Positions 6,873 to 57,374 are shown, counted from the stretch's first letter. The stretch: DNA of 64,000 bases from Rikenellaceae bacterium DTU049 (GCA_001513285.1 LFTI01000101.1:1309-65308); one strand, 5' to 3'. Translations and numbers: made by a program. The notes: generated by a model not told the origin, from the sequence alone.

Positions 6873-7087
6873 TTTGCAATAAAACAAGCAAGTCGTATTG
6901 GATAGAAACGATTTTATAGGGTTTTATAATTTTAAACCCATCAAATCATTTCCCGAGCAGAGACTTTTCTTTGTGTGGCTAACAAAGAAAAATAAATTAG
7001 AATGAAATTTATTTAAAATCAATAATACTCATAAGAAATATAGCTATTAAAGTGAATAAACCAGTAATAATTTAGTTATTAATTAAA
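6866..7087 (+). repeat. intergenic repeat family A, copy 2
   Basis: 'gagaaataatttgcaataaaacaagcaagtcgtattggata...gggtttta..taaaccc...atcatttcccgagcagagacttttctttgtgtggctaacaaagaaaa...atttatttaaaatcaataatactcataagaaa...ccagtaataatttagttattaattaaa'. Confidence 0.85.
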
Positions 7088-8388: not shown

Positions 8389-9831
8389 ATGGAGAAATTT
8401 TTATTTTTTATTTTACTGATGATAAGCATGGTAGCAATGTCACAAAATACGGTTATAAATAAAAATTTTGATGACAATGATTTTTTACATAGTAATGATA
8501 TTGATAGCACACTACATATGATCACCCCTTATTTTAGTGGATTAGCAAGTGAAAAAAATTATGAACTTTTGTTCGGAGTTAACTTTAAAAAAGAGTTTCA
8601 AAACAAAAATACTTTTTTCAAAATATGGACAAAACCTGAGTTTTTATTTTTTTCTTTGTATGATTACCTAGACGAATATGATTCTATCTCTCGTTTCCCT
8701 GGAGGAGAAAAAATTTATAATGAACATTACTCGTGGAATGCACCTATAGAACTAACTATGACTGTAAAAAATCATTATACTTTGTCTGTGGGTTACAGTA
8801 AATTTCATTGGGGTAATGGATATAGAGGATTGAATATATCATACGCCAGTGCCAATTATCCTTATTTGCTTCAGCGATTTACAATCAAAGGATTAGATTT
8901 TTCATGGGCTATGATGAGATGGACTAATCCATTAACAAAGCCAAACTATGATAAATATTCCATATTTCATAGTTTTTCATTTAATATCGGGCAAAAATGG
9001 CGATTTGCATTTTTCGAAAACATCATTTATCCTGCTAGAGATAGTACTCACAACAATTTTGAGTTTGTATATTTATTGCCTCACATTTTTTACAGATATA
9101 TAGATTATTCCCTTGGATCACCTTATAATTTATATTTTGGTGGGAATTTTAATTGGCGCGCTGGTAAAAATTTTCAAATCTATGGACAAGCTATTTTAGA
9201 TGATTTCATTTTCAGTGAATTTCGAAAAGACATAAAGCATAGATTACATCCTAATGATAGCAACATAGTTTATGGTAATTGGATGAATAAATATGCCATA
9301 CAAATAGGTATCAAGTGGAGAACAAATAATAATAATTTCCGCTCGAGATTAGAATTTAATGCTGTTCGCCCTTATACTTATAGTCACAAAAATCCCATTC
9401 AAAATTTCTCTAATAATGGCCAGCCTGTTGCTCATCCTTTCGGAGCCAATTTTTACGAAGCTTTGCTTGAGGCTTCACTTATCAAAAAAAATTGGCAATT
9501 TTATTTCATAAGTTTCTATAAACACATTGGCTATGACTCTACTGGTACTCATTTTGGACAAAATATTTTCCAACCTACCTTTGATGCTTATACAGGCAAT
9601 AACATTCCCGTAAACCCATTCTATAATGTTATAGGACAGGGAAATGTGGAGAGATTGATAGCTACACAGATTAATATTATGTATAAATATAAAATCAACT
9701 ATGTAGATTATATTTACTTGGGTGCTGGATTAGAATACAGATGCAGCATTAATGGAGATTATAGCAAATTAATTCCTTTTATCAGAATACAATTTAATAT
9801 TAATAATATGCATGTGTGGCATAGCTATTAG
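8389..9831 (+). CDS. putative outer-membrane beta-barrel protein (Wzi/RemB-like is only a guess)
   Basis: 480 aa with a signal peptide, an aromatic-rich alternating pattern and a C-terminal aromatic residue. 'AVRPYTYSH...QPVAHPFGANFYE' reminds me of capsule-assembly/gliding OM proteins. Confidence 0.4.
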   Translation: MEKFLFFILLMISMVAMSQNTVINKNFDDNDFLHSNDIDSTLHMITPYFSGLASEKNYELLFGVNFKKEFQNKNTFFKIWTKPEFLFFSLYDYLDEYDSISRFPGGEKIYNEHYSWNAPIELTMTVKNHYTLSVGYSKFHWGNGYRGLNISYASANYPYLLQRFTIKGLDFSWAMMRWTNPLTKPNYDKYSIFHSFSFNIGQKWRFAFFENIIYPARDSTHNNFEFVYLLPHIFYRYIDYSLGSPYNLYFGGNFNWRAGKNFQIYGQAILDDFIFSEFRKDIKHRLHPNDSNIVYGNWMNKYAIQIGIKWRTNNNNFRSRLEFNAVRPYTYSHKNPIQNFSNNGQPVAHPFGANFYEALLEASLIKKNWQFYFISFYKHIGYDSTGTHFGQNIFQPTFDAYTGNNIPVNPFYNVIGQGNVERLIATQINIMYKYKINYVDYIYLGAGLEYRCSINGDYSKLIPFIRIQFNINNMHVWHSY

Positions 9832-9957
9832 TATTTTCACAATGTAGAAATCATAATAAACTTATTGAAATATGCGTTTAGATAATAAAGTCCTTTTTGA
9901 TTTTTTGTACTAAAAAATGCCTTTACAATAATTCGTAAGTTATGGCAATACCGCATT

Positions 9958-10245
9958 GGGAAATGATTTGCAATAAAACAAGCAAGCCGTGTTGGATATA
10001 AGGGTTTACACTGTTTGAGCAAGCTAAAGCTTGCGAGTTTGTAAACCCACAGAGGTGATTGCGTAGTTTTATCAAAACATTTCCACAGCGGAGACTTTTC
10101 TTTTGTTACTTTTCTTTGTGTGGCTGACAAAGAAAAGTAATTTAAATAAAAATTTATTTAAAATCAATTATGCTCATAAGAAAAATAGCTATTATCGAGG
10201 ATGAACCAGTAATAATTTAGTTATTAATTAAACGCCTAATTCAAT
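9958..10245 (+). repeat. intergenic repeat family A, copy 3 (longest)
   Basis: Same module order as copy 2 with an expanded 'gggtttaca...tgtaaaccc' hairpin. Ends 'taataatttagttattaattaaacgcctaattcaat', like copy 1. Confidence 0.85.
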
Positions 10246-10430
10246 AAACTTACTAAGAAAAATATTAACAAAGCCAATTTAATCTATATTATTTAAGTTT
10301 TTAATTATAATATTGCTATTTTAGATAAATTAAATATGGTTTTATAACGTTTTATATGGACAAGGATTAAAATATTTTTTTTATTTAAAAATTTTTTATA
10401 ATTTAGCTATGTAAAACCGTAAAAAATTAA

Positions 10431-12107
10431 ATGGATATGAAAAATTCAAAATTTACATCAATAAATACTCAGAAGGTAGCTCTGAGTCACTATGTGAGTA
10501 ATATTACATTTATTACAATACTTTTAGCATTAATATTATTTAATGGGGTCAATAATAAATCCCATGCCCAGGCACCAGCTATTGAATGGCAAAAATGCCT
10601 CGGCGGAACATCTGAAGATATTGCATACTCCATCCAGCAGACAAGTGATGGGGGATTTATTGTGGCTGGTGAAACATTGTCCAATGATGGCGATGTGTCG
10701 GGAAATCATGGAGGTAGAGACGCTTGGGTAGTGAAACTTAACAGTTCAGGGGATATTATATGGAAAAAATGCCTCGGCGGAACTGATCATGATTTTGCAT
10801 ACTCCATCCAGCAAACAAGTGATGGGGGATTTATTGTGGCTGGTTTAACAGGGTCCAATGATGGCGATGTGTCGGGAAATCATGGAGGTAGTGATGCTTG
10901 GGTAGTTAAACTTAACAGTTCAGGGGAAATTGAATGGCAAAAATGCCTCGGCGGTACAAATTATGATTTTGCATACTCCATCCAGCAGACAAGTGATGGG
11001 GGATTTATTGTGGCTAGTATTACAGGGTCCAATGATGGTGATGTGTCGGGGAATCATGGAGGTAGTGACTATTGGGTAGTGAAACTTAACAGTTCAGGGG
11101 GTATTGAATGGCAAAAATGCCTCGGCGGTACAAATAGTGATGGCGGAATATTTAATGATTATATATACTCCATTCAGCAGACAAGTGATGGAGGATTTAT
11201 TATGGCTTGTGAAACAATGTCCAATGACGGCGATGTATCGGGGAATCATGGATCTTATGACGCTTGGGTAGTGAAACTTAATAGTTTAGGGGATATTGAA
11301 TGGCAAAAATGCCTAGGCGGTACAAATAGGGATATTGCAAACTCCATCCAGCAAACAAGTGATGGGGGATTTATTGTGGCTGGCTCTACATCTTCCAATG
11401 ACGGCGATGTGTCGGGTAATCATGGATATGGTGACGCATGGGTAGTGAAACTTAATAGTTCAGGGGATATTGAATGGCAAAAATGCCTCGGTGGAACAAA
11501 TTCGGATTGGGCATACTCCATCCAGCAGACAAATGATAGTGGATTTATTGTGGCTGGTTACACACATTCCAATAACGGCGATGTATCAGGGAATCATGGA
11601 TATTATGACTATTGGGTAGTGAAACTTAACAGTTCAGGGGATATTGAATGGCAAAAATGTATTGGCGGTACAAATTATGAGTTTGCAAACTCCATTCAGC
11701 AGACAAGTGATGGTGGATTTATTGTGGCTGGTGAAACATTGTCCAATAACGGTGATGTGTCGGGAAATCATGGATATTCTGACGCTTGGGTAGTGAAATT
11801 AACAAATGAGCCGGATAGAATAAATGAAATAGAAAATTACAATTTACTCTCAATATACCCCAATCCATTCACAGAATATGCAATAATAACTTTTGATAAT
11901 CCTAAAAATGAAAAATACAAATTGCTTATTATAGATGTTACAGGAAAGGTAGTAATGGAAATTAATGAAATTTATGGAAATACAGTGGAAATTGATGGAA
12001 GTAATTTGTCTGCTGGGGTTTATGTGTTTGAACTGACCTGCGGTCAATGCGCTTTGGCAGGCGAAGAAGGGGAGAAGTTGTTCAGGGGGAGGTTTGTGGT
12101 AGAGTAA
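10431..12107 (+). CDS. secreted repeat (probable 7-bladed propeller) protein with T9SS type-A C-terminal sorting domain
   Basis: Signal peptide, then seven about 58-aa repeats 'WQKCLGGT..D.AYSIQQTSDGGFIVAG.T.SNDGDVSGNHG..DAWVVKLNSSGDIE'. A CTD follows ('LSIYPNPFTEYAIITF...SAGVYVFEL'). Confidence 0.85.
   Translation: MDMKNSKFTSINTQKVALSHYVSNITFITILLALILFNGVNNKSHAQAPAIEWQKCLGGTSEDIAYSIQQTSDGGFIVAGETLSNDGDVSGNHGGRDAWVVKLNSSGDIIWKKCLGGTDHDFAYSIQQTSDGGFIVAGLTGSNDGDVSGNHGGSDAWVVKLNSSGEIEWQKCLGGTNYDFAYSIQQTSDGGFIVASITGSNDGDVSGNHGGSDYWVVKLNSSGGIEWQKCLGGTNSDGGIFNDYIYSIQQTSDGGFIMACETMSNDGDVSGNHGSYDAWVVKLNSLGDIEWQKCLGGTNRDIANSIQQTSDGGFIVAGSTSSNDGDVSGNHGYGDAWVVKLNSSGDIEWQKCLGGTNSDWAYSIQQTNDSGFIVAGYTHSNNGDVSGNHGYYDYWVVKLNSSGDIEWQKCIGGTNYEFANSIQQTSDGGFIVAGETLSNNGDVSGNHGYSDAWVVKLTNEPDRINEIENYNLLSIYPNPFTEYAIITFDNPKNEKYKLLIIDVTGKVVMEINEIYGNTVEIDGSNLSAGVYVFELTCGQCALAGEEGEKLFRGRFVVE
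10587..11822 (+). repeat. coding tandem repeat, 7 units (six of 174 bp, one of 192 bp)
   Basis: Unit starts ('tggcaaaaatgcct') are at 10587, 10761, 10935, 11109, 11301, 11475 and 11649. Nucleotide similarity between units is high. Confidence 0.9.
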
Positions 12108-12122
12108 ATGCTAAAAGAGGGT
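12036..12122 (+). repeat. G/A-rich module (inverted orientation of the C/T-rich intergenic repeat family) overlapping the 3' end of CDS 10431..12107
   Basis: 'gcgaagaaggggagaagttgttcagggggagg' resembles the reverse complement of 12540-12560 and 38838-38858. It is locally GC-rich in an AT-rich genome. Confidence 0.5.
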
Positions 12123-12261
12123 AATTTTATAATAATGAATTTTATTTATTATTGCACAGTTAAATATTAACCACAAATTTAACAAAGAATGCACAAAGAA
12201 CACAGAGAATGATAGAAATTAATTGTCTGAAGTGGGATTTGGGAGATTAAAGGATTTTGGG

Positions 12262-12330
12262 ATTTACCCCGTGAGATAACTAGTATTCAACTTTTAATGT
12301 ATCTTTTACTCTATATCTCATGGGGTAAAT
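12262..12330. repeat. 17-bp inverted repeat (hairpin) inside the complex intergenic region
   Basis: 'atttaccccgtgagata' (12262-12278) pairs with 'tatctcatggggtaaat' (12314-12330). 16 of 17 positions are complementary and the mismatch is a G:U position. Confidence 0.7.
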
Positions 12331-12496
12331 TTATTATTTGTGCTCATTTGTATGCATTTGTGGACAATAAATAACAACCAGCAATGTCTATAATTTCATC
12401 CACAGATTTACACAAATTAACACTGATGATTTAGCTTTTTTAGTGCATTTGTTAATTAATTTACAGCTATTATCTTACTATACTATATAAACTATT

Positions 12497-12682
12497 CAAC
12501 TCCATCACTTATCACCTATCACTAATCACTAATCACCTCTTCTCCCTCTCTTCTCGTCACCACGTCTCGCAGTCTAATCGTCTCAACTTATCAACTTTAA
12601 ATTATAATTTGTGTGCATTTGTGGATTAATAACAACAATTGTATAGTTAAATATAAACCTAAATAATTTAACCAAAATAAAC
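12497..12682 (+). repeat. C/T-rich module plus 'tgcatttgtgga' core (intergenic repeat family B/C)
   Basis: 'cttatcacct...cctcttctccctctcttctcg...gtctcgcagtct' followed by 'tgtgtgcatttgtggattaataacaacaattgtata...aaataatttaacc'. Related copies lie at 24371-24670 and 57176-57293. Confidence 0.75.
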
Positions 12683-12721
12683 GTTATAGAACTTTAAATA
12701 TAAATAATTTTAAGAAAAAAT

Positions 12722-12859
12722 AAAAAAATTTTTTTATTTAAAAAGTATTTATTAATTTTGCAAAGTCAAAAACCCTAAAAACAAAAAGATATGAAAAAAT
12801 TAGCAATTTTAGTTTTTGTAGCAATGATTGCTGTATCATTCAGCAGTTGCCAAAAAGAA
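12722..12859 (+). repeat. promoter/5'UTR/lipoprotein-signal module, copy 1 of 4
   Basis: Near-identical to 23138..23273 (about 7 substitutions by manual alignment). Contains the -7 box taattttg and encodes MKKLAILVFVAMIAVSFSSCQKE. Confidence 0.85.
12753..12760 (+). promoter_or_regulatory. Bacteroidota-type -7 promoter box (TAnnTTTG)
   Basis: 'taattttg' lies about 30 nt upstream of the ATG at 12791. Confidence 0.45.
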
Positions 12860-13229
12860 GATACCCAAACAGCTATTATAAAATGTTAAAGAAATTGGAT
12901 TTAAGGGCGTTTTACAAAGTTGCCTTTACAGAATTGAAGGAAATTGTGTTTATGGCGTTTGTTGTACCCCTGGAGCTTTTGAACAATGTCCTTGCTGTTT
13001 TCCTTGTACTCCTATTATTATTGAAGGATCATATATTACTTTAGATTGTGCAAATATATTAGAAAAATTTGGTTTTACTGTGGATGAAATATCGATATGG
13101 CAAAATGATAAAAATGCTTTAGAATGCTCTGATACCTTCATTTTAAATCATTATAATTTTTATTTACTTTTATATGAACAAGGGCTATCAAAACATCCAG
13201 ATGAAATGTTAAAAAATATGAAAAAATAA
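12791..13229 (+). pseudogene. Cys-rich lipoprotein gene disrupted by a 1-nt frameshift
   Basis: A signal peptide plus lipobox ORF (ATG 12791) stops at 12887. A 115-codon ORF with no start codon runs 12882..13229 in the adjacent frame and encodes 'CLYRIEGNCVYGVCCTPGAFEQCPCCFPCTP...'. Removing one A from the aaaa run at about 12880-12883 fuses them. Confidence 0.5.
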
Positions 13230-14975: not shown

Positions 14976-15233
14976 ATGCCCATAACTACTGGCGAGGTAT
15001 TTCGCACAGATTGCCCATCTGCAAACTCTACTTATTGGCGTATGTTTAGAGGTGGTTCTGAAATAGCAAGATTTTATAATCTATCCACAGACTATAACTT
15101 ACGAATTGAGACATATTCTAAGGGGGGTAATATATTATTAAATCCCGCACAGATAACACGAATGATTATAACAGATGGAAATTTCCCAAGTACTCAACAA
15201 GGTTATGTTGGAATATATAGAAATTTAATCTAA
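14976..15233 (+). pseudogene. 5' fragment of a paralog of the tail-fibre-like gene 16946..20776
   Basis: 14991..15212 aligns with 17198..17419 with 11 substitutions and no indels (manual alignment). The fragment has no signal peptide, and homology ends abruptly at 'GYVGI'. Confidence 0.7.
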
Positions 15234-16945: not shown

Positions 16946-19900
16946 ATGAAACAAAAAATTATTATTGCCTTTGTAGCATCGGTGATGCTACTGGCACAGC
17001 AACAAATTAATGCTCAACAATGGATCACAATGGGTAATTCTCAGAATCGATTTGCCCAACCCAGGAATACTGGAAACCAAGATAGTTGGATTCGCAGCAT
17101 TGGTGTCGGTTATTTTGATGGTGGTTACACAAATTCCTTTTTGCATGTTAATACCACTAATATGATATTACCGCATAATAGTAGCATCGCATCGTTAGGC
17201 GAAGTATTTCGCACAGATTGTCCATCTTCAAACTCTACTTACTGGCGTATGTTTAGAGGTGGTTTTGAAATAGCGAGATTATATAATCTATCCACAGACT
17301 ATAACTTGCGTATTGAGACATATTCTAAGGGGGGTAATATATTATTAAATCCCGCACAGATAACACGAATGATTATAACAGATGGAAATTCCCCAAGTAC
17401 TCAACAAGGTTATGTGGGTATAGGAGAAAATTTTTTAACACCACAATCATTACTTCACTTAAACGATGATCTTGCTGGCATAGCCAGTCCACATTCTACA
17501 TATTTGCAGATTACAAATTCAGGGACTACATCAAGCACAGGCAATACTTTAACAGATGGTTTCAAAGTTGGCATCACTCCTGATGGCACAGCTGAGCTGC
17601 GACAGCAGGAAATTAAACCGATAAATATATATACAAATAATACTCAACGAATGATAATAACAAACGATGCTACTACTGGCGAACCACGTGTGGGGATTGG
17701 AGGTTCTAATTTAACAACTCCACGTGCATATTTGCATATAGGTGATAATGCATGGCCAACCACGGGGTATCGGACATGGATGAACAAAGGTGTTTATATA
17801 CATTCCGGTTTAAATGAACAAAATCATGATAACATGTATATTGGGCTTAGATTTCTACCAGAACCTCCCCATGGCCGCACAGACGCAATTATTAACTGGG
17901 GAAATAACCCCATAGCTACCGCTGAACAAGACCGTCTGAGATTCGTATTTACAGCACCACCTGCATTGGGTCTTGTTGCAAGTTCTAACGATGGCCTTGA
18001 AGTAGCCCGCATGGTTAGTAATGGAAATCATGGTTTCGTGGGTATTGGTGATTTCTGGACACCAGATATTGAGCCAATAAATCAGTTAGATGTTAGAGGA
18101 AATACGGTAGTAGGAACCTCTTATGCAGGTTTAGTTACAGCACCCACAAATGGCATGTTAGTTCAGGGTTTTACAGGGATAGGTCCAACTTTTTCATCCG
18201 CTTATCATCCCAATCGTCAACTTGAAGTTTTTGATGCTAATGCTCCGCAATTACGATTAACACGGACCATTACTCATATTACACGCTATACAGACTTTGA
18301 AACCACTCCATATGGAAATCTTCGCATTAATCCAAGTGATACTGGATTGCTTCCACTTAATGGTAAAGTAGGCGTCAATCTTGCCAGTGGATTAGAACCC
18401 AAAAATACATTGGAGATAACTTCAGGTCCAACATCGCCATCACCAAGCGGTCTTCGATTTACAAATCTAACATGGTCATCACAAACAGTTCCAAATGGAG
18501 GTAATAATGGCGTTCTCACTGTTGATGCTGATGGTGATGTAATTTATGTGCAAGCACCAACAGGAACAGGTTTTGGACAAGCATGTAGTGCTATAGGTAA
18601 TCCTGGACAACTTACGCAAGATATTGAAGTTCCTACTAATACATTTAATTTTGTATTTACCAATAATCAAAATCAACTAGCTACACAAAATAATATAGGT
18701 ATCGGTTTACCAAATGCTAATTGTAATCCTATTGCAAAATTAGATGTATTACAACACTCAACTGACTCTGCTACTATTGGAATAAATGTTATTAATAATG
18801 ATCCAGGAAATGTATTTTATTTGGGTTCACCTCATGCGGGAGCATCTATTGGTATTTTATCAGAGGTTAATGGTATTAATACTACTGAAAATTCAATAAA
18901 TATTGCAGGTGGTTTTATTTCCAGTGGTGCTGATATTAATATATCTGGATTTTTTGAAACACCACATTTTTATGGCAATTATTATTTAAAAAATTTTGCT
19001 ATATATGTTCCTAGAGATAGAGGTAAAATACAATTTGGTGGTTCTACTTATAATAATGTCCCATATTTGTTAACTGTTTTTGGGGAGGCAGCAAAACCTG
19101 CTGGTGCTACATGGATTAATTTCTCTGATTCTTTATTTAAAACAAATATAATACCTTATAAAGATGGTTTAGATATCGTAAGAAAGATAAACCCTGTTTC
19201 TTTTAATTATAAAAAATTATTAGGAGTTTCTGAAAACAGACGATATGTTGGTACAATTGCACAAGAACTTGCTCAAATAGCACCTTATATGGTAGATACA
19301 GTAATGATGGTAATTGATAGCATTGATACAACAAAAAAGCCTGTTCTTACTTTAAATTCAGATCCATTTTTCTATTTGTCTATTAATGCCATAAAGGAGT
19401 TAGACAGCATTGTATCACAAATACAACGTCCACCATTACCTCCACAACTAATAGACCCTGCAAATGAAGCAACAGAAGCGTCACCTATTCCCGAATTTCA
19501 ATGGCATCATTCTTTTAGTGCTTTTGGTTACTATTTATATGTATCGACAACACCTGATACCAGCGGGCTCGTTTGTATCATTAATACTACTGATACAGTA
19601 GCTACAATATTAGGAATTGGCAAACGCGAAATTACAAGTGTAAATGAACAACAAACTCAACAAATACCTGTTCAAAGAGAGGAAATAGGTAGGCTAAATT
19701 GTGGCAATACTTATTACTGGTGGGTTAAAGCATATAATCAATATGGATACAGCAGCCCATCAGAGACATGGGATTTTACAACCGCACTACTACCCGAGCC
19801 ACCACTATTATCCTTACCTGCTAATGGCACTACTGATATAGAACAAGATTCTGTAGTTTTATCATGGCACTCACCCCAAGGTGCAGCTTATTATGTGGTA

Positions 19901-20899: not shown

Positions 20900-20976
20900 A
20901 TATTTCCCCTTTTTTCTTTCACACTTTTAAAATTATTTCAGCATATCTAGAGATTAGAAGAGGTAATTTTAAAATT
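20900..20976 (+). pseudogene. short relic of a paralog of membrane-protein gene 22584..22991
   Basis: 'cacttttaaaattatttcagcatatctagagattagaagaggtaattttaaaatt' parallels 22695..22760, which encodes '...LAYLEIKRGNFKI'. Confidence 0.5.
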
Positions 20977-21153
20977 ATTATTTTACAATAATCAAAATTC
21001 ATTTGTCGTTATTAAAAAAAATTAAAAGAGGTAAAGAACTAAATGTTTTAAAAAATTTAAAATTTTTCAATTAATAAAGGTATTAAATTAAACATTTTAT
21101 CTGCTGTTTTAATTTTATATGGAGCATGTGAATAAATAAAATAATCAATAATT

Positions 21154-21537: not shown

Positions 21538-21665
21538 GAAAAAAATTTTTTTATCTCAAAACAATTACTAATTTTGAACCATCAAAACTCTAAAAAATTA
21601 AAAGATATTAAAAAATTAGTAATTTTAGTTTTTGCAGTAATGATAGATGACATCTCTTGTGAATA
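21538..21665 (+). repeat. promoter/5'UTR/lipoprotein-signal module, copy 2 of 4 (decayed)
   Basis: Same layout as 12722..12859, but the start codon reads ata and the signal-peptide frame ends after about 20 codons. The OMP gene begins 35 nt downstream. Confidence 0.7.
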
Positions 21666-21699: not shown

Positions 21700-22500
21700 A
21701 TGAATACAACCAAATTTTTCATCATTTCCTTAACGGCATTTTTTCTGTTAATTAATAATCTAAAAGCTCAATCCGATACTACAAAATGGTTAGACAATAA
21801 TCAAATAAAATTTTCTCTTACTACAGCAGTAATAGAAAATATTGGTATAGACTATTATAATCTAAATTGTCAGCTATTAAGATCATATCCTATGCCTGGT
21901 GTAGAAGCTACAGCCAGCTATTATTTGCATTTAAACAAAGGCTGGGGACTTAATTTCGGTATCGGTGGTGGCATAGCTTTTTACGACCTACATTTCGAAA
22001 TGGAATTACCTGATGATGCTTATGCACCTTATTTTGACTCTACTAATACAGCTACTACAAAATTTAATAAATCTAATATTACTCAAAAATATTTGACTAT
22101 TCCTATATCTATACAGAAATCATTTCGTTTTCCTAATAATAAAAATACTTTCCATATTTTAGAAGCTGGAGCTAGAGTTAGTTTTTTATTTAAAAATCAT
22201 ACAGAAATTGTAGAAACCTATCCTACTAGTGCTACTGAAAATGCTACATTGTTCACTGCAGATTTTAGAAATCCTAACAAAATAAAAGGTAGTGTCTATT
22301 TCAAATATGGTATTCAAGAAATTCTAAAAAATCAAAATACTTTTCAGTGTAATATAATTCTTCATTATTCACCAGCTGAGCCTACTTTTGGTTCTTATGA
22401 GTTCACACAAATAGACAATAGTTATGCCATGTTATCTCAAAAAATTAATTATATCGGACTAGAATTTGTCTATGGGCTCACATTATCTAAAAATAAATAA
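21700..22500 (+). CDS. putative outer-membrane beta-barrel protein
   Basis: 266 aa with a signal peptide ending 'LKAQ'. Alternating hydrophobic strands, G/Y/F-rich. Confidence 0.5.
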   Translation: MNTTKFFIISLTAFFLLINNLKAQSDTTKWLDNNQIKFSLTTAVIENIGIDYYNLNCQLLRSYPMPGVEATASYYLHLNKGWGLNFGIGGGIAFYDLHFEMELPDDAYAPYFDSTNTATTKFNKSNITQKYLTIPISIQKSFRFPNNKNTFHILEAGARVSFLFKNHTEIVETYPTSATENATLFTADFRNPNKIKGSVYFKYGIQEILKNQNTFQCNIILHYSPAEPTFGSYEFTQIDNSYAMLSQKINYIGLEFVYGLTLSKNK

Positions 22501-22519
22501 TGAAGTCATAATTAGTTGA

Positions 22520-22596
22520 AAATTTTTTTATTTAAAAAGTAATTACTAATTTGGCACCGTCGAAAGTCAAAAAACAAAAAGATATGAAAAAATTAG
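22520..22596 (+). repeat. promoter/5'UTR module, copy 3 of 4 (only the first 4 codons are shared)
   Basis: 'aaaatttttttatttaaaaagtaattactaatttggcaccgtcgaaagtcaaaaaacaaaaagatATGAAAAAATTAG'. Confidence 0.7.
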
Positions 22597-22991
22597 ATAA
22601 ATACGATTGGCAAGAAATCATTTTTGTGGCAATTTTTATAATTACTGCTACTTTAGGTAGAAATGATATAAGCTTTGGTAAAATAATAACTATTTTCTAT
22701 TTCCCACTTTTAATAATATTTTTAGCATATCTAGAGATTAAAAGAGGTAATTTCAAAATTGATAGTGTATGGGCAGTGTTTACCTTATTTTATAAATCAT
22801 TTTATTTAACAGCTATGTTTTTCATTATGAGTAAATATCCTGGTTATCAGATTATGGCAGTTTCAGCTTCGATAGTAACTATTCTATATATAATATTGAC
22901 ATATTTTGTTAAAAAGAATAATAATCTAGCTATCAGAGCAGTGATATATTATCTTGTTTTTGGACTATTCTTGTCTCCCATTTATTATTAA
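22584..22991 (+). CDS. hypothetical 4-TM membrane protein
   Basis: I prefer the ATG at 22584 (MKKLDKY...), which matches the repeated leader module, over the TTG at 22551 in the ORF track. Confidence 0.55.
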   Translation: MKKLDKYDWQEIIFVAIFIITATLGRNDISFGKIITIFYFPLLIIFLAYLEIKRGNFKIDSVWAVFTLFYKSFYLTAMFFIMSKYPGYQIMAVSASIVTILYIILTYFVKKNNNLAIRAVIYYLVFGLFLSPIYY

Positions 22992-23137
22992 AGTAATATA
23001 CAGCTTAGATGTGGTGGAATATGTAATGTAAAAACAGCATTTTTTCATATAAAAGTTCACAAAAATTACAATTATATTAATAATATTTTTAAAAGAAACA
23101 AATAATTACTAATTGAAAAATATATAATATTTAAAGA

Positions 23138-23273
23138 AAAAATTTTTTTATTTAAAAAGTATTTAGTAATTTTGCAACGTCAAAAACCCTAAAAACAAAA
23201 AAATATGAAAAAATTAGCAATTTTAGTATTTGTAGCAATGATAGCTGTTTCATTCAGCAGTTGCCAAAAAGAA
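23138..23273 (+). repeat. promoter/5'UTR/lipoprotein-signal module, copy 4 of 4
   Basis: See 12722..12859. It drives the intact lipoprotein gene 23205..23678. Confidence 0.85.
23167..23174 (+). promoter_or_regulatory. Bacteroidota-type -7 promoter box (TAnnTTTG)
   Basis: 'taattttg' lies 30 nt upstream of the ATG at 23205. Confidence 0.45.
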
Positions 23274-23678
23274 AAACCACAAAGTGTAGCAGAAAAATTT
23301 TTATCAGCCTACGTAAAAGCAGATTTCGAAACTGCTAAAACAGTTACTTCAGGTGATGCTTTAGAGCAAATTAATCAAATCAGTAATATGGTTAGTTCAT
23401 ATCCTGAATTCTTCCCTACAGATGCAAGTTATGAAAATCTTAATTGTCAAGAAATCGAAAACAAAGTAAAATGTACTTTTACCATGGTTCAAAATTCTGA
23501 AAAATTTGATGGTAACTATGTAGAACTAGAAAAAATAGATGGTAAATGGATGGTTACTACTTTAGGTTATGAAGGAGAAGAACTTCCAGAAATGACTGAA
23601 GAAGAGACTATGACCGATTCTACTGCTATGCAAAGCGATTCAGCAGCAATGGCTGAAACTCAACCAGTTACTGAATAA
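23205..23678 (+). CDS. lipoprotein, DUF4878-like
   Basis: 157 aa. Lipobox 'FSSC'. 'VAEKFLSAYVKADFETAKTV' is the characteristic opening of DUF4878-type proteins. Acidic C-terminal tail. Confidence 0.6.
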   Translation: MKKLAILVFVAMIAVSFSSCQKEKPQSVAEKFLSAYVKADFETAKTVTSGDALEQINQISNMVSSYPEFFPTDASYENLNCQEIENKVKCTFTMVQNSEKFDGNYVELEKIDGKWMVTTLGYEGEELPEMTEEETMTDSTAMQSDSAAMAETQPVTE

Positions 23679-23715: not shown

Positions 23716-24174
23716 ATGAAAAAATTATTAGTAATCACCTTAGCAATAGTTTCATTAGTATTCGTACAATGTAAAAAAGCTAATACACCAGAGCAAGTAA
23801 CTGAAAAATTCATTTCAGCTATTCAACAAGACGATTTTGAAGTAGCTAAATCATTAGCAGACAGTACAGCATTAGAAATTTTAAATATGATTGAAAGTTT
23901 AGTTACTCAAATGGGAGAAACTGTTACAAAAAATGATTCTATTGTTCCTGATGTTAAAGACATCATATGCGAAGATATGGACATCAAAGATATGAAAAAA
24001 TGTACTTATACTTCTCAAGGTACACAAAACTATGTAGAGCTAAAGAAAATCGAAAATGAATGGAAAGTTGTAAACTTCCCTAAAGAAGGTTTTAATGAAC
24101 CTTTACCTGAGCCTTCAATGGAAATAACCGAAGTACCTGACACTACTACTACAGACTCTATAGTAGCACAATAA
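23716..24174 (+). CDS. lipoprotein, DUF4878-like (tandem paralog)
   Basis: 152 aa. 'VTEKFISAIQQDDFEVAKSL', and 'YVELKKIENEWKV' parallels 'YVELEKIDGKWMV' of the upstream gene. Confidence 0.6.
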   Translation: MKKLLVITLAIVSLVFVQCKKANTPEQVTEKFISAIQQDDFEVAKSLADSTALEILNMIESLVTQMGETVTKNDSIVPDVKDIICEDMDIKDMKKCTYTSQGTQNYVELKKIENEWKVVNFPKEGFNEPLPEPSMEITEVPDTTTTDSIVAQ

Positions 24175-24193
24175 TTCTAATTAAAAAATTTTT

Positions 24194-24228
24194 AAAAAGG
24201 GCAATATTTTATTGCCCTTTTTTTATTT
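24194..24228 (+). terminator. intrinsic terminator
   Basis: 'aaaaagggcaat-atttt-attgccctttttttattt' is a GC-containing stem followed by a T-run. Confidence 0.75.
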
Positions 24229-24370
24229 ATTTGAATATTAATTTATAATTTACCTATATTAAATCCTTTAATAAATCCATAATATTTTGGATTTAAATGT
24301 ATTATAATTAGCTACATATTTAAACAAATAGTTGATGAGTTTAAGTGTTTATAAGCTAATTAGAAAAAAC

Positions 24371-24670
24371 TAACCTTTTCCTCACACAGTCTCCTTGTCT
24401 CCTACTCTCCCACTCTCCCCATAACTATTTCTTTGTCATACCCTGGCCTAAAGGTCATGATTAATAACCTTTTTTGTACTTATTTGTGTGAATTTGTGGA
24501 CTAATTTATAATTAATATTTTACTAAACTCCTTATAACTTTTTACTTATCACCTCTTCACCCACTCTCCGAGTCTCGCAGTCTCCCAATCTCCTCATCTC
24601 TTTGCCTCCCTGTCTCCTTGTCACCCCCTCTCCCAGTCTCCCCATCACCCACTCTCTCCTACTCTATCAC
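24371..24670 (+). repeat. about 300-bp strongly C/T-rich composite repeat (two C/T modules flanking a 'tgaatttgtggac' core)
   Basis: 'ccttttcctcacacagtctccttgtctcctactctcccactctcccc' ... 'cttatcacctcttcacccactctccgagtctcgcagtctcccaatctcc...ctctcccagtctccccatcaccc'. It ends exactly at the rfbB stop codon (24671). Confidence 0.8.
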
Positions 24671-25657
24671 CTACATTTTTGCTATATACCAATCAATTGT
24701 TTTAGATAATCCTTCAATAAAATCAGTTTTAGGTTGCCAACCGAGCTCTTTTCTAATCTTTGTACTATCAATAGCATAGCGCAGATCATGTCCTAGTCTA
24801 TCTTTTACAAAAGTTATTAATTTTTCACTATATCCTACTGGTCTATTAAGTTTCTCATCCATAATTTTGCAAATCAATTTCACTAGATCAATATTTCGCC
24901 ATTCATTATTACCACCGATATTATATGATTCGCCAATAACACCTTTTAGCCAAACAAGTTCTAGAGCTTCACAATGATCATCTACATACAACCAATCTCT
25001 AATATTAATACCTTGTCCGTAAACAGGCAATGGTTTTTCATGATAAATATTACTAATTATTACTGGTAAAAGTTTCTCTGGATATTGATTAGGACCATAA
25101 TTATTAGAACAATTTGTAACAATAGTAGGCAAGCCATATGTATGGAAATAAGCTTTAACGAAATGATCGCTTGATGCTTTAGATGCAGAATAAGGGCTGC
25201 GAGGAGAATATGGCGTTTGCTCTGTGAAATATCCTTGCTCTCCTAAAGAACCATATACCTCGTCAGTAGAAATATGTATAAACCGTCTATTATCAAAATC
25301 TCCATCCCAAACAGTTTTAGCTGCATTAAGTAAATTCACAGTTCCTATCACATTTGTATATACAAAATCCATTGGATTTACAATAGATCTATCTACATGA
25401 CTCTCTGCAGCTAAATGAAAAACTGCAACGGGATTATATTTTTTAAAAATTTCAAAAATAGCATCGAAGTCTACAATATCCACTTTGATAAAACTATAAT
25501 TAGGTTCGTTTGCTACCTCTTTTACATTATCTAAATCTCCAGCATAGGTTAATTTATCCAAATTAATAATATGATAATTAGGATATTTTTTTACTAATCT
25601 ACAAACGAGATGAGATCCTATGAATCCTGCACCTCCTGTTACTATAATATTATCCAC
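24671..25657 (-). CDS. rfbB: dTDP-glucose 4,6-dehydratase
   Basis: 328 aa, GTG start. 'VTGGAGFIGSH', 'YSASKASSDH' and 'NCSNNYGPNQYPEKLLP'. Confidence 0.92.
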   Translation of the reverse strand: MDNIIVTGGAGFIGSHLVCRLVKKYPNYHIINLDKLTYAGDLDNVKEVANEPNYSFIKVDIVDFDAIFEIFKKYNPVAVFHLAAESHVDRSIVNPMDFVYTNVIGTVNLLNAAKTVWDGDFDNRRFIHISTDEVYGSLGEQGYFTEQTPYSPRSPYSASKASSDHFVKAYFHTYGLPTIVTNCSNNYGPNQYPEKLLPVIISNIYHEKPLPVYGQGINIRDWLYVDDHCEALELVWLKGVIGESYNIGGNNEWRNIDLVKLICKIMDEKLNRPVGYSEKLITFVKDRLGHDLRYAIDSTKIRKELGWQPKTDFIEGLSKTIDWYIAKM

Positions 25658-48821: not shown

Positions 48822-49829
48822 TTAAATGTTATAGATTAAATATGTTTTTGACATCAAAGCACTGTACCGCTCCCATGCCCGCCTATCCGACGCCGCCAAA
48901 TTCAGCAACCTCCCTGTATCTTCTATAATCTTCTCCGCCAAATACTTACCTCTCACTACAAACCACATTATGTAGTTTGTCAAATACTTTGTCGCCACTC
49001 CTCGAAACTTATAATATATCCAGCCAACAAAATCTGTTATCTTCTTATGAATAGTTGATACACTGTATATACCATCTTTCTTCTTTTTCTTAGAAGATAT
49101 CTCTTTGTGTTTGATGTGCTCAGCATTAACTGTTTTGAAAGCTTTTTTATCGCTGCCGCATACCACTGAATTCTCAGATATCCTATATTTTAGAAAATCT
49201 GATATGTGTTCAGCCTGAACTCGTTTATCTTCTAATTTTTTGAACAAAATATTTCCACTTCTATCTGTGGCAGCTATTATTGCTACTTTCTCTGGCTTCT
49301 TTTTCGTTAGCTTTTTTAATTCTTTCTTGTCTCGTCTCTTTTTACCTTTTTCAGAATAATTCATTAGAAGCTCCTCTAATTCTACTATTCCAAAGAAATT
49401 AATATTGTCTTCAAAAGATTGCAAAGCACAGAGAATTCTATGTCGCCAAAAGAAACTCGTTGTGAGGCTAATATTCACAATTCTTGCACATTCTCTCAAG
49501 CTCATTCCTGCACTCATACATTTGATATATTCGAGCATTTTGCCCTTTTCATGAACCCCATACATAAAAGTGCCAGTGGTAACTCTAAATTGTCTTCCAC
49601 AGTTTTTGCAACGGTAATTTTGAACTCCACTTTGCAAACCGTTTTTAATTACATGGCTGCTATTGCAATCTGGACAAAGTACACCAGTAGACATAGCTTT
49701 GATCTCTTGATAATCTACGACATCTTTGCCTTCTTCGATCATTTGATCATAAAGATTGTCGTAAAACTCGCGTGTACCTTCCTTAGTAAGGGTAAATATT
49801 TTAGTAGGGTTTTCAAATATTTTATCCAT
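48822..49829 (-). CDS. IS1595-like transposase
   Basis: Zn-ribbon 'CPDCNSSH...YRCKNCGRQF', HTH 'MSLRECARIVNISLTTSFFWRHRI' and a DDE-type core ('GIVELEEL', 'VVCGSDKKAF', 'ITDFVGW'). The ATG at 49829 is preferred because a -7 box lies between it and the track start at 49871. Confidence 0.8.
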   Translation of the reverse strand: MDKIFENPTKIFTLTKEGTREFYDNLYDQMIEEGKDVVDYQEIKAMSTGVLCPDCNSSHVIKNGLQSGVQNYRCKNCGRQFRVTTGTFMYGVHEKGKMLEYIKCMSAGMSLRECARIVNISLTTSFFWRHRILCALQSFEDNINFFGIVELEELLMNYSEKGKKRRDKKELKKLTKKKPEKVAIIAATDRSGNILFKKLEDKRVQAEHISDFLKYRISENSVVCGSDKKAFKTVNAEHIKHKEISSKKKKKDGIYSVSTIHKKITDFVGWIYYKFRGVATKYLTNYIMWFVVRGKYLAEKIIEDTGRLLNLAASDRRAWERYSALMSKTYLIYNI

Positions 49830-49845
49830 AAAAATAATTTTTTTG

Positions 49846-49853
49846 CAAATATA
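49846..49853 (-). promoter_or_regulatory. Bacteroidota-type -7 promoter box (TAnnTTTG) for the transposase
   Basis: The minus strand reads 'tatatttg' 16 nt upstream of the ATG at 49829. Confidence 0.4.
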
Positions 49854-50028
49854 TGAATTTTTATTATACAAAAAACTTGATTTTTAATAACATGAAAATA
49901 TTACCATACCCATTCCCCTACCCCACTTCTCCTTATTCTTATCCCCAACCTCTTATTAACATTTTTTACATATTTTTATACTTTTTGATTTTTTATTTAC
50001 TTTTGCATTAACAATTAAATTTACAATT

Positions 50029-57175: not shown

Positions 57176-57293
57176 TTCCCCATATCCACTCCTGTATTGA
57201 TTTTTTCTTTGTTCTTTTTGATCATTTGTGTGCATTTGTGGACTAATAAATAACAATTGTATACTTTAAATAATTTACCCACAATAAACTTTT
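57176..57293 (+). repeat. short C/T-rich module plus 'tgcatttgtggac' core (intergenic repeat family B/C)
   Basis: 'ccccatatccactcctg...tttgtgtgcatttgtggactaataaataacaattgtatactttaaataatttaccc' closely parallels 12608..12682. Confidence 0.75.
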
Positions 57294-57374
57294 TAAAACC
57301 TAATTTAATTAATTATTGACTCATCATTCACATTATTTTATGCAAATAATTTTTATTATTTCATAATTTTCTAT

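Follow-up and report, generated by a model that had tools for sequence, protein, structure and literature searches.

Can a promoter, its leader and a signal peptide be passed as a unit from one gene to another within a bacterial chromosome? This question is raised by a stretch of 64,000 nucleotides from Rikenellaceae bacterium DTU049 (GCA_001513285.1 LFTI01000101.1:1309-65308; hereafter the window), in which copies of one short sequence, hereafter the module, stand before genes with unrelated bodies. The module consists of a predicted promoter and an A-rich leader and, in its long form, extends through a lipoprotein signal peptide. The window is 100% identical to contig JAAYGS010000120.1 of GCA_012727615.1 and 99.7-100% identical to many metagenome contigs from biogas and other anaerobic digesters; related Bacteroidales metagenome-assembled genomes (MAGs) are 83-97% identical. 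Comparison of the window with such contigs (designated L below) suggests that the module is probably a duplicated promoter and leader, accompanied in some copies by the signal peptide, which undergoes gene conversion and serves as portable homology for general recombination.

Module copies and the genes behind them

An nhmmer profile, built from eight module sequences, was scanned over the 64 kb. Copy 1 (12722-12869, + strand) contains an A7T7 tract, the -7 box TAATTTTG (12753-12760), the A-rich leader, the start codon ATG at 12791 and the signal peptide up to the third residue after the cysteine (CQKE). Copy 4 (23111-23283, +), with a beta-type upstream flank and the same -7 box TAATTTTG (23167-23174), continues through the leader to ATG at 23205 and codes for the signal peptide up to CQKE. 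Copy 3 (22512-22596, +) is represented only by the promoter with the variant -7 box TAATTTGG (22547-22554), the leader and ATGAAAAAATTAG. In copy 2 (21538-21665, +), a relic, the -7 box TAATTTTG is intact (21569-21576), ATG is changed to ATT and the signal-peptide frame is closed. For the relic the E-value was 1e-07, and for the other three copies it ranged from 4e-17 to 6e-19. A weak module-like copy (10370-10444, +; E = 0.011), located directly 5′ of the gene of a 558-aa repeat protein of the type IX secretion system (T9SS), may be a distant relative of the module or merely a similar promoter. Beyond these five copies, located at 10.3-23.3 kb, the profile found no further match in the 64 kb.

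The similarity between copies is far above chance: a degenerate 34-nt promoter pattern gave three matches in the window against 0.00 expected. Positions 12722-12859 and 23138-23273 differ by six substitutions and by 2 nt in the 5′ A-run, and the extended match of copies 1 and 4 (12697-12869 and 23111-23283) shows 87% identity over 173 nt. Both copies encode an identical lipoprotein signal peptide of 23 aa, MKKLAILVFVAMIAVSFSSCQKE. Copies 3 and 4 are 82-84% identical over 62-78 nt. All four copies listed in the preliminary description were thus found, including the pair with the common signal peptide, the decayed copy with its closed frame and the shortened copy with only promoter, leader and first codons; that description counted about seven substitutions, read the lost start codon as ATA, and missed the weak fifth copy and the 5′ relic of a further gene at 20911-20985.

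A strict promoter pattern gave 1-2 exact matches per related GTDB genome, and two metagenome scans that skipped the known gene bodies gave no match and then one (L037); these scans demanded an exact promoter match and would miss diverged copies. The small number of matches indicates that the module family is small and confined to the island described below. A genome-wide promoter family was rejected on the same strict pattern and on the confinement of the nhmmer matches to 10.3-23.3 kb.

Homology between the copies ends abruptly. When the mature Cys-rich protein behind copy 1 was compared with the mature DUF protein behind copy 4 by BLASTP, CQKE alone was aligned (E = 0.09), in agreement with the earlier statement that homology stops shortly after the lipobox cysteine and that the mature parts are unrelated. 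Homology continuing through the mature proteins, named there as the sign of ordinary paralogy, was not seen; the copies are therefore not ordinary paralogues.

In the window and related contigs, the promoter and leader were found on five unrelated genes, encoding the Cys-rich lipoprotein, the DUF-like lipoprotein, a multi-transmembrane (multi-TM) protein, a TRL-family lipoprotein and a GIY-YIG-like protein. The bodies of these genes are without similarity to each other; the Cys-rich and DUF genes do have a common 69-nt stretch encoding the signal peptide. The TRL-family lipoprotein (L006, L012, L030) keeps its own signal peptide, and homology to the module, about 92-97% identical to copy 4, stops at ATGAAAAAATT. 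Upstream of the cytoplasmic GIY-YIG-like protein, found in the more distant genome L037, homology (92.6% to copy 4 over 81 nt) stops exactly at ATG. The shared stretch spans positions -95 to -1, including the -7 box and the whole leader, and continues into the coding region in two genes; the widely reused part is a promoter and leader of about 75 nt, ending at ATG or at most 13 nt from it. With the reconstructed full protein as the query, 5.8 billion protein clusters were searched by word index; the signal peptide was found on the Cys-rich and DUF families only, as well as on one relic. The proposal of an expression-and-export module attached to different gene bodies holds for the promoter and leader, present on several unrelated genes, but its export part is limited to the two families and the relic.

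No significant Pfam match was obtained for the Cys-rich, multi-TM and DUF-like proteins, and the DUF4878-like domain assigned earlier is merely a sub-threshold match. The protein of 135 aa headed by copy 3 (22584-22991, +; absent in L007), previously described as having four transmembrane segments, is indeed multi-TM, with 4-5 hydrophobic segments rather than a fixed four. The gene headed by copy 4 (23205-23678, +) encodes a lipoprotein of 157 aa, weakly DUF4864/DUF4878-like, and is followed by a tandem paralogue of 152 aa (23716-24174, +), which is 36% identical over its full length and has a diverged signal peptide without the module. Since the two genes are paralogous including their signal peptides, the signal peptide is probably native to the DUF family, and the gene at 23205 is probably the native owner of this part of the module. 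A sub-threshold Rfam match to DapZ (24153-24227; 37.9 bits against a gathering threshold of 56), lying over a terminator-like hairpin after the paralogue, is probably due to chance.

Copy 1 heads the Cys-rich gene, as was described, but a stop after 32 codons and a break of the frame had been overlooked. The 5′ part of the gene is a truncated open reading frame (ORF) of 32 aa (12791-12889, +), MKKLAILVFVAMIAVSFSSCQKEDTQTAIIKC, with a stop codon at 12887-12889, and the remainder of the Cys-rich body (12882-13229, +), 99% identical to P0001, lies out of frame. P0001, the intact allele of 146 aa from another lineage, reads ...TAIINNVKEIGF...; relative to it, a 2-nt deletion near 12878-12884 changes ATAAATAATG to ATAAAATG. 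The Cys-rich gene of the window is a pseudogene, and the 99% identity of its body to P0001 indicates that the inactivation is recent. The lesion is present in every examined contig carrying this lineage's version of the locus, and the gene is intact in another lineage. Neither phase variation nor a programmed frameshift was accepted as the explanation, since the deletion lies outside any simple repeat and is shared by all of these contigs.

Remote homologues of the Cys-rich protein, 30-41% identical, were revealed by a full HMMER search over 1.84 billion representative proteins. Most of those aligned begin with a signal peptide of their own, which differs from that of the module and precedes C-[E/Q/K]-K-E; the lipobox cysteine at that position is missing from two. 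Since the Cys-rich homologues are already lipoproteins, copy 1 represents replacement of a 5′ end without new export, contrary to the idea that the module confers export on a new body. Its in-frame junction lies within the short coding stretch AGTTGC.AAAAAGAA, common to both lipoprotein genes.

Proteins of the Cys-rich family (about 145 aa; P0001, P0016-P0036) have no Pfam match. An alignment of 15 sequences contains invariant C45, C59, C67, C73, W104, Y122 and P137, and H136, which with P137 makes up HP in a C-terminal HPD motif, is nearly invariant. The examined contigs of the lineage usually have a radical-SAM gene and a gene encoding 471-481 aa before the Cys-rich gene; an insertion of other DNA separates this pair from it in the window and in some strains.

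The -7 box TAATTTTG matches TAnnTTTG, the -7 consensus of Bacteroides (PMC4747536), and ends 30 nt before ATG in copies 1 and 4. This motif occurs 16-40 nt upstream of 13 of the 46 window genes, far above the expectation from a background of 1.17 occurrences per kb and strand, and the position of the -7 box of the module is therefore typical of promoters of this genome. From these motif matches, the module is predicted to contain a promoter of the Bacteroidota sigma-A type. The A-rich leader, GTCAAAA(A)CCCTAAAAACAAAAA.AT, showed no significant folding signal (z-scores 0.17, -1.09 and 1.13) and matched no Rfam family; a structured RNA or riboswitch was rejected on these grounds. The length of the A/T tract is nearly constant between strains, with T7 in nearly all copies, and slipped-strand phase variation at such tracts is unsupported.

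The long form of the module extends through the signal peptide to the cysteine and then Q-K-E. In MKKLAILVFVAMIAVSFSSC, an n-region MKK, an h-region and the lipobox FSS/C can be recognized, read directly from the sequence without a predictor. The lipoprotein export signal (LES) of Bacteroidota is C-X-K-(D/E)2-X (PMC5080379); CQKEDT of the Cys-rich protein fits it, and CQKEKP/CQKENP of the DUF protein corresponds to it partially, with one acidic residue. The part of the LES region shared through the module is CQKE only. The module would act as a promoter, and its long form would also direct lipoprotein processing and export to the surface.

Rearrangements among related contigs

Related contigs contain rearranged versions of the locus, and the structural variants break at the module. 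In L007, window position 22596 is joined to 23139, whereby the multi-TM gene is removed and copies 3 and 4 are fused; the crossover lies inside AAAATTTTTTTATTTAAAAAGTA, a 23-nt stretch common to both copies.

The upstream flanks of the module are of two types. The alpha flank, found at copy 1, is the right end of element J plus about 30 nt, and the beta flank is a different sequence. J, which resembles a miniature inverted-repeat transposable element (MITE), is an intergenic element of 236-435 nt; its ends form imperfect inverted repeats of about 26 nt (GGTTCTATAACGTTTTGAGTGGGTAA / TTTACCCACAATAAACGTTATAGAACC), and CATTTGTGTGCATTTGTGGA motifs lie in its interior. Its pieces upstream of copy 1 (12112-12697, +) include the right terminal repeat ...AAACGTTATAGAAC (12679-12692). 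Further sites of J were found in the window at 57221-57303, 24340-24385 (-) and 10338-10370, and in related contigs at L027 5365-5686 and 6411-6646, L030 6624-7058 and L037 1107-1540.

The two flank types are reassorted among the Cys, DUF and TRL bodies. The alpha-Cys combination is present in the window and L023, and beta-Cys in L017, L022, L025 and L026; beta-DUF is characteristic of the window and most other contigs, and alpha-DUF of L006 and L016. The TRL body has the beta flank in L006 and the alpha flank in L012 and L030, and in L037 the alpha flank is combined with the GIY-YIG-like gene. The comparison with related genomes that the preliminary description had proposed thus showed presence/absence polymorphism in other strains and species, and it is precisely at the module that this and the reassortment take place.

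The TRL cassette occupies three slots: before the DUF gene (L006), after the gene of the 266-aa outer-membrane protein (OMP266; L012), and between the radical-SAM and 471-aa genes (L030). The order is beta-module-TRL-179aa-J-alpha-module-DUF in L006 and J-alpha-module-TRL-179aa-J in L030, so that the two cassettes are circular permutations of one unit. In L029, a site without the cassette, equivalent to the slot of L030, contains the left end of J in a 200-nt segment. J flanks cassettes and is the second portable homology in these rearrangements.

Sequence variation within the module was analyzed for 20 distinct haplotypes of Cys-linked and DUF-linked modules. Among 27 variable columns, there are no fixed differences between the two groups and 10 shared polymorphisms, and all four gametes are present in 23 of the 78 informative site pairs. 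Both paralogues, in different strains, carry a 3-nt variant, ATACTA, which gives the signal peptide its AIL form. When near-identical strains are compared, variation is greatest in the module (98.6% against 100%).

Competing explanations

Dedicated machinery for these rearrangements was sought in the 64-kb window and among the neighbouring genes with Pfam annotations listed. No tyrosine or serine recombinase was found there, and the sole transposase, of the IS1595-type DDE class, is encoded at 48822-49871, 25 kb from the module. Around the modules there are no convincing flanking inverted repeats, only AT-rich matches of low complementarity, and the module itself has no terminal inverted repeats, its 3′ ends differing between copies. 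An invertible promoter was rejected on the absence of such flanking repeats. The window and the listed neighbouring genes include no integrase, no attC-like structured repeat was seen, and each unit has its own promoter; a dedicated recombinase or integron was rejected as well. Neither the module nor J had an exact match among IMG/VR viral contigs, and a phage origin was rejected on this basis.

Several points weigh against duplication, gene conversion and general recombination as the explanation. The comparison set consists of metagenome assemblies and MAGs, and the L007 deletion is known from one contig. Between species, the module is the most conserved part (94-97% against 83-93% for the DUF body), and in L037 it is about 92% identical, against 78% for the adjacent gene; conservation above that of the flanks may reflect horizontal spread of a mobile unit instead of constraint on locally duplicated copies. 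Several breakpoints lie at the A/T tract on the 5′ edge of the module, which is also expected from a site-preferring mechanism. The -33 position of the module reads TTTATTT, that is, TTTA instead of the consensus TTTG reportedly established by Bayley and colleagues in 2000, and the promoter and export functions are predictions from motif matches.

The L037 values would suit a mobile promoter-delivering unit composed of J and the module, a MITE with an outward promoter, moved by a transposase acting in trans and spread horizontally in related Bacteroidales. The alpha flank is indeed the right end of an element with terminal inverted repeats, the J-alpha-module unit stands on four bodies (Cys, DUF, TRL and GIY-YIG-like), and a transposase of the IS1595 type is present in the window. 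However, the module is without terminal repeats, and its 3′ ends lie at ATG+0, +11, +13, +69-78 and about +220; beta-type copies are wholly without J, and J also occurs without the module, its right ends then adjoining unrelated sequence. Junctions exactly at ATG are unexpected from transposition, and the unit was not found on the IMG/VR viral contigs. Such a unit is unlikely. A variant of cassette exchange through J and the module, operating without a recombinase or with an enzyme encoded elsewhere, is doubtful but somewhat less so: circles of the type [J]-module-gene(s) would be excised and would reintegrate at any copy of the module or J, bringing promoter and leader, with horizontal spread among digester Bacteroidales. 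If true, this would be an exchange similar to an integron without integrase, supplying accessory surface and defence genes.

A dedicated site-specific system with a core site in the 5′ untranslated region (UTR) or A/T tract, of the Mycoplasma vsp/vpma/vsa or integron kind, would exchange gene bodies behind one expression site. It would account for the breakpoints at the A/T tract and for the cassette-like TRL unit in three slots, and vsp/vpma likewise combine mature parts that diverge with a 5′ UTR and signal peptide that are conserved (PMC2268961). It is nevertheless quite improbable, given the negative searches for recombinases in the window and the neighbouring genes listed and for flanking inverted repeats. 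Switching by inversion is impossible with copies that are all direct repeats of one orientation, and with a -7 box in every copy there is no single expression site; patchy shared polymorphisms over the whole module fit gene conversion better than one core site. Ordinary diverged paralogues or convergent promoters, kept by purifying selection alone without exchange, would be consistent with the greater conservation of the module than of coding sequence between species and with weak look-alikes at 10376, 15255, 24223 and 32504, produced by the general promoter plan of this genome (A/T tract plus TAnnTTTG). Identity of 87-94% over 146-173 nt followed by an abrupt drop, the unrelated mature proteins, the absence of fixed differences together with 10 shared polymorphisms and four-gamete failures, and the reassortment of flanks and bodies between genomes make this very improbable, and plain paralogy or convergence is already largely refuted. 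Chimeric joins at AT-rich low-complexity sequence deserve mention, as all data originate from short-read metagenome assemblies, some contigs (L006) end at the module and the L007 deletion is represented by a single contig. But the arrangement recurs at 99.7-100% identity in many independent samples and assemblers (NCBI, ENA, JGI), identical stretches between copies do not exceed about 23-40 nt, below the usual assembly k-mers, and alpha-DUF (L006, L016) and beta-Cys (L017, L022, L025, L026) are recurrent variants in independent genomes; an assembly artefact is hardly credible.

Under duplication, gene conversion and general recombination, which remains the probable explanation, the source of the module would be the native 5′ end of a surface-lipoprotein gene of the DUF family, copied by local segmental duplication. 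The recipients would be neighbouring transcription units in a strain-variable island of an uncultured Bacteroidales lineage of anaerobic digesters. Junctions may form at microhomologies, namely ATGAAAAAA..., common in this genome, which is AT-rich, and the stretch encoding S-C-x-K-E. Selection would keep only working junctions, located at or next to ATG (multi-TM, TRL, GIY-YIG-like genes) or in frame within S-C-x-K-E between two genes that already encoded lipoproteins; out-of-frame copies would decay to bare promoters, such as the relic before the OMP gene. Gene conversion would keep the copies alike. Module copies and J would then serve as portable homology for recombination of the RecA type, leading to deletion, insertion and relocation of cassettes between module-headed slots, plausibly via excised circles.

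The accessory island and known counterparts

All module copies head transcription units of the + strand in an accessory island, bordered by the radical-SAM/481-aa gene pair and by two epimerase genes. Housekeeping genes for DnaJ, GrpE, Dxr and topoisomerase belong to its chromosomal surroundings. In the commoner arrangement (L027-L036), five modules are located within 6 kb in the following order: the module of the Cys-rich lipoprotein; a relic module with a relic multi-TM fragment before the gene of a 105-aa lipoprotein; a relic module and signal peptide before the gene of OMP266; the module of the multi-TM gene; and the DUF module, followed by the DUF paralogue. The window retains a relic of the 5′ part of the second multi-TM gene (20911-20985, +), which in related contigs keeps its own module (L027 13449-13670).

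The gene of OMP266, an OMP_b-brl_2 outer-membrane protein of 266 aa with its own signal peptide of the signal peptidase I type, is located at 21700-22500 (+), 3′ of relic copy 2. This relic ends 35 nt upstream of the OMP start, and its -7 box lies 123 nt upstream. The relic is present in 21 of the 21 loci covering the position, as three sequence variants, with an intact -7 box in the copies examined, and judging from this arrangement it probably acts as the promoter of the OMP gene.

The island behaves as an integration hot spot. A 5′ part of the 1276-aa gene with a Peptidase_S74 domain is repeated at 14991-15226 and 17198-17433 with 93% identity and is left as an ORF fragment of 85 aa, a further sign of segmental duplication in the island. 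The T9SS-sorted protein of 558 aa (10431-12107) contains six tandem repeats of 174 nt (58-aa units), and the block 9828-12720, including its gene, is absent from L017, L022, L025 and L026. Other cargo is represented by an N6/N4 DNA methyltransferase gene and two small ORFs directly upstream of module copy 1 (L021 100-2110), by the GIY-YIG-like gene under the module (L037 1639-2496), and by a glycosyltransferase cluster in place of the right half of the island (L035 5353-11864).

A second dispersed intergenic repeat, K, was found in the window at 6963-7087 and 10092-10232, and in L037 at 2726-2796; its copies include the hairpin CTTTTCTTTGTGTGGCTGACAAAGAAAAG and show 88-94% identity to each other across sites and genomes. 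C/T-rich low-complexity tracts with units tcacc, ctccc and gtctc (12490-12590, 24380-24680, and L017 5300-5390, inverted) adjoin J elements in either orientation. At 12265-12325, in the non-coding stretch upstream of copy 1, there is a stem-loop (ccccgtgagata ... tatctcatgggg) whose loop measures about 36 nt; it has no Rfam match.

The statement that no described mechanism was known for such sharing in Bacteroidota stands in so far as no example from this group was found in the literature searched; analogues in other bacteria are known. The ospE/ospF/elp (erp) genes of Borrelia burgdorferi, with an upstream homology box (UHB), reportedly combine a conserved upstream box and leader peptide with possibly unrelated mature regions, and recombination is said to have been inferred for them. 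The UHB genes occupy equivalent loci on multicopy cp32 prophage plasmids. Like them, the module shares an upstream box and leader peptide before unrelated mature parts; unlike them, it is repeated in tandem and in direct orientation within a single island of the chromosome. The papers on these lipoproteins (Marconi 1996, Akins 1999) are included in the reference list of PMC10016077.

A correspondence in definition is provided by putative mobile promoters, that is, sequences at least 80% identical over at least 50 nt upstream of non-homologous genes in one genome and in related genomes, located outside recognised mobile elements, whose manner of movement is unknown (Matus-Garcia, Nijveen and van Passel 2012; PMC3575422). 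The module shows this identity and length, and its downstream genes are non-paralogous. It differs in running into the coding region in two genes, which the survey would filter as paralogy, and in the population data, which show that copies exchange sequence and act as crossover points. In the clustered genes of the Mycoplasma vsp/vpma (vsa, vlp) loci, the signal peptide and the 5′ UTR, in which the recombination sites lie, are conserved and the mature parts diverge; only one promoter is active, and switching proceeds by inversion with a tyrosine recombinase (Xer1, Mbr or HvsR) encoded next to the locus (PMC2268961). Here, two genes and one relic likewise share the UTR and 23-aa signal peptide, but no recombinase was found in the window or the neighbouring genes listed, the copies are co-oriented (+) and each has a promoter.

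Invertible promoters and shufflons of Bacteroidales, an order common to both cases, are flanked by inverted repeats and served by dedicated recombinases (PMC4747536, PMC8748976). Rearrangement of TAnnTTTG promoters similarly rewires expression of surface proteins, but no such inverted repeats or recombinases were found at the module. Correia elements, ERIC and REPIN are dispersed short repeats, promoter-bearing MITEs (cited in PMC3575422). The MITE-like J adjoins alpha-type copies of the module, whereas the module has no terminal repeats or constant ends, and J and the module occur independently. Integron cassettes, which are promoterless, bounded by attC sites and served by the IntI integrase and an attI site, differ in that here no integrase was found and each module unit brings its own promoter. 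The module is a clear case of promoter reuse, not a new kind of system, and reveals no new molecular machine.

Promoter reuse has been catalogued in bacteria, with the movement mostly unknown, and this locus provides natural before and after states in dozens of metagenomic strains. The deletion between two copies, the cassette found in three slots and circularly permuted between two of them, and the reassortment of flanks and bodies together with signatures of gene conversion point to ordinary homologous recombination on short regulatory repeats. In Bacteroidota, a promoter, leader and lipoprotein signal can act as one evolutionary unit, which is of help in the annotation of MAGs, and the module suggests a compact, naturally portable expression and export tag for the engineering of Bacteroidales.

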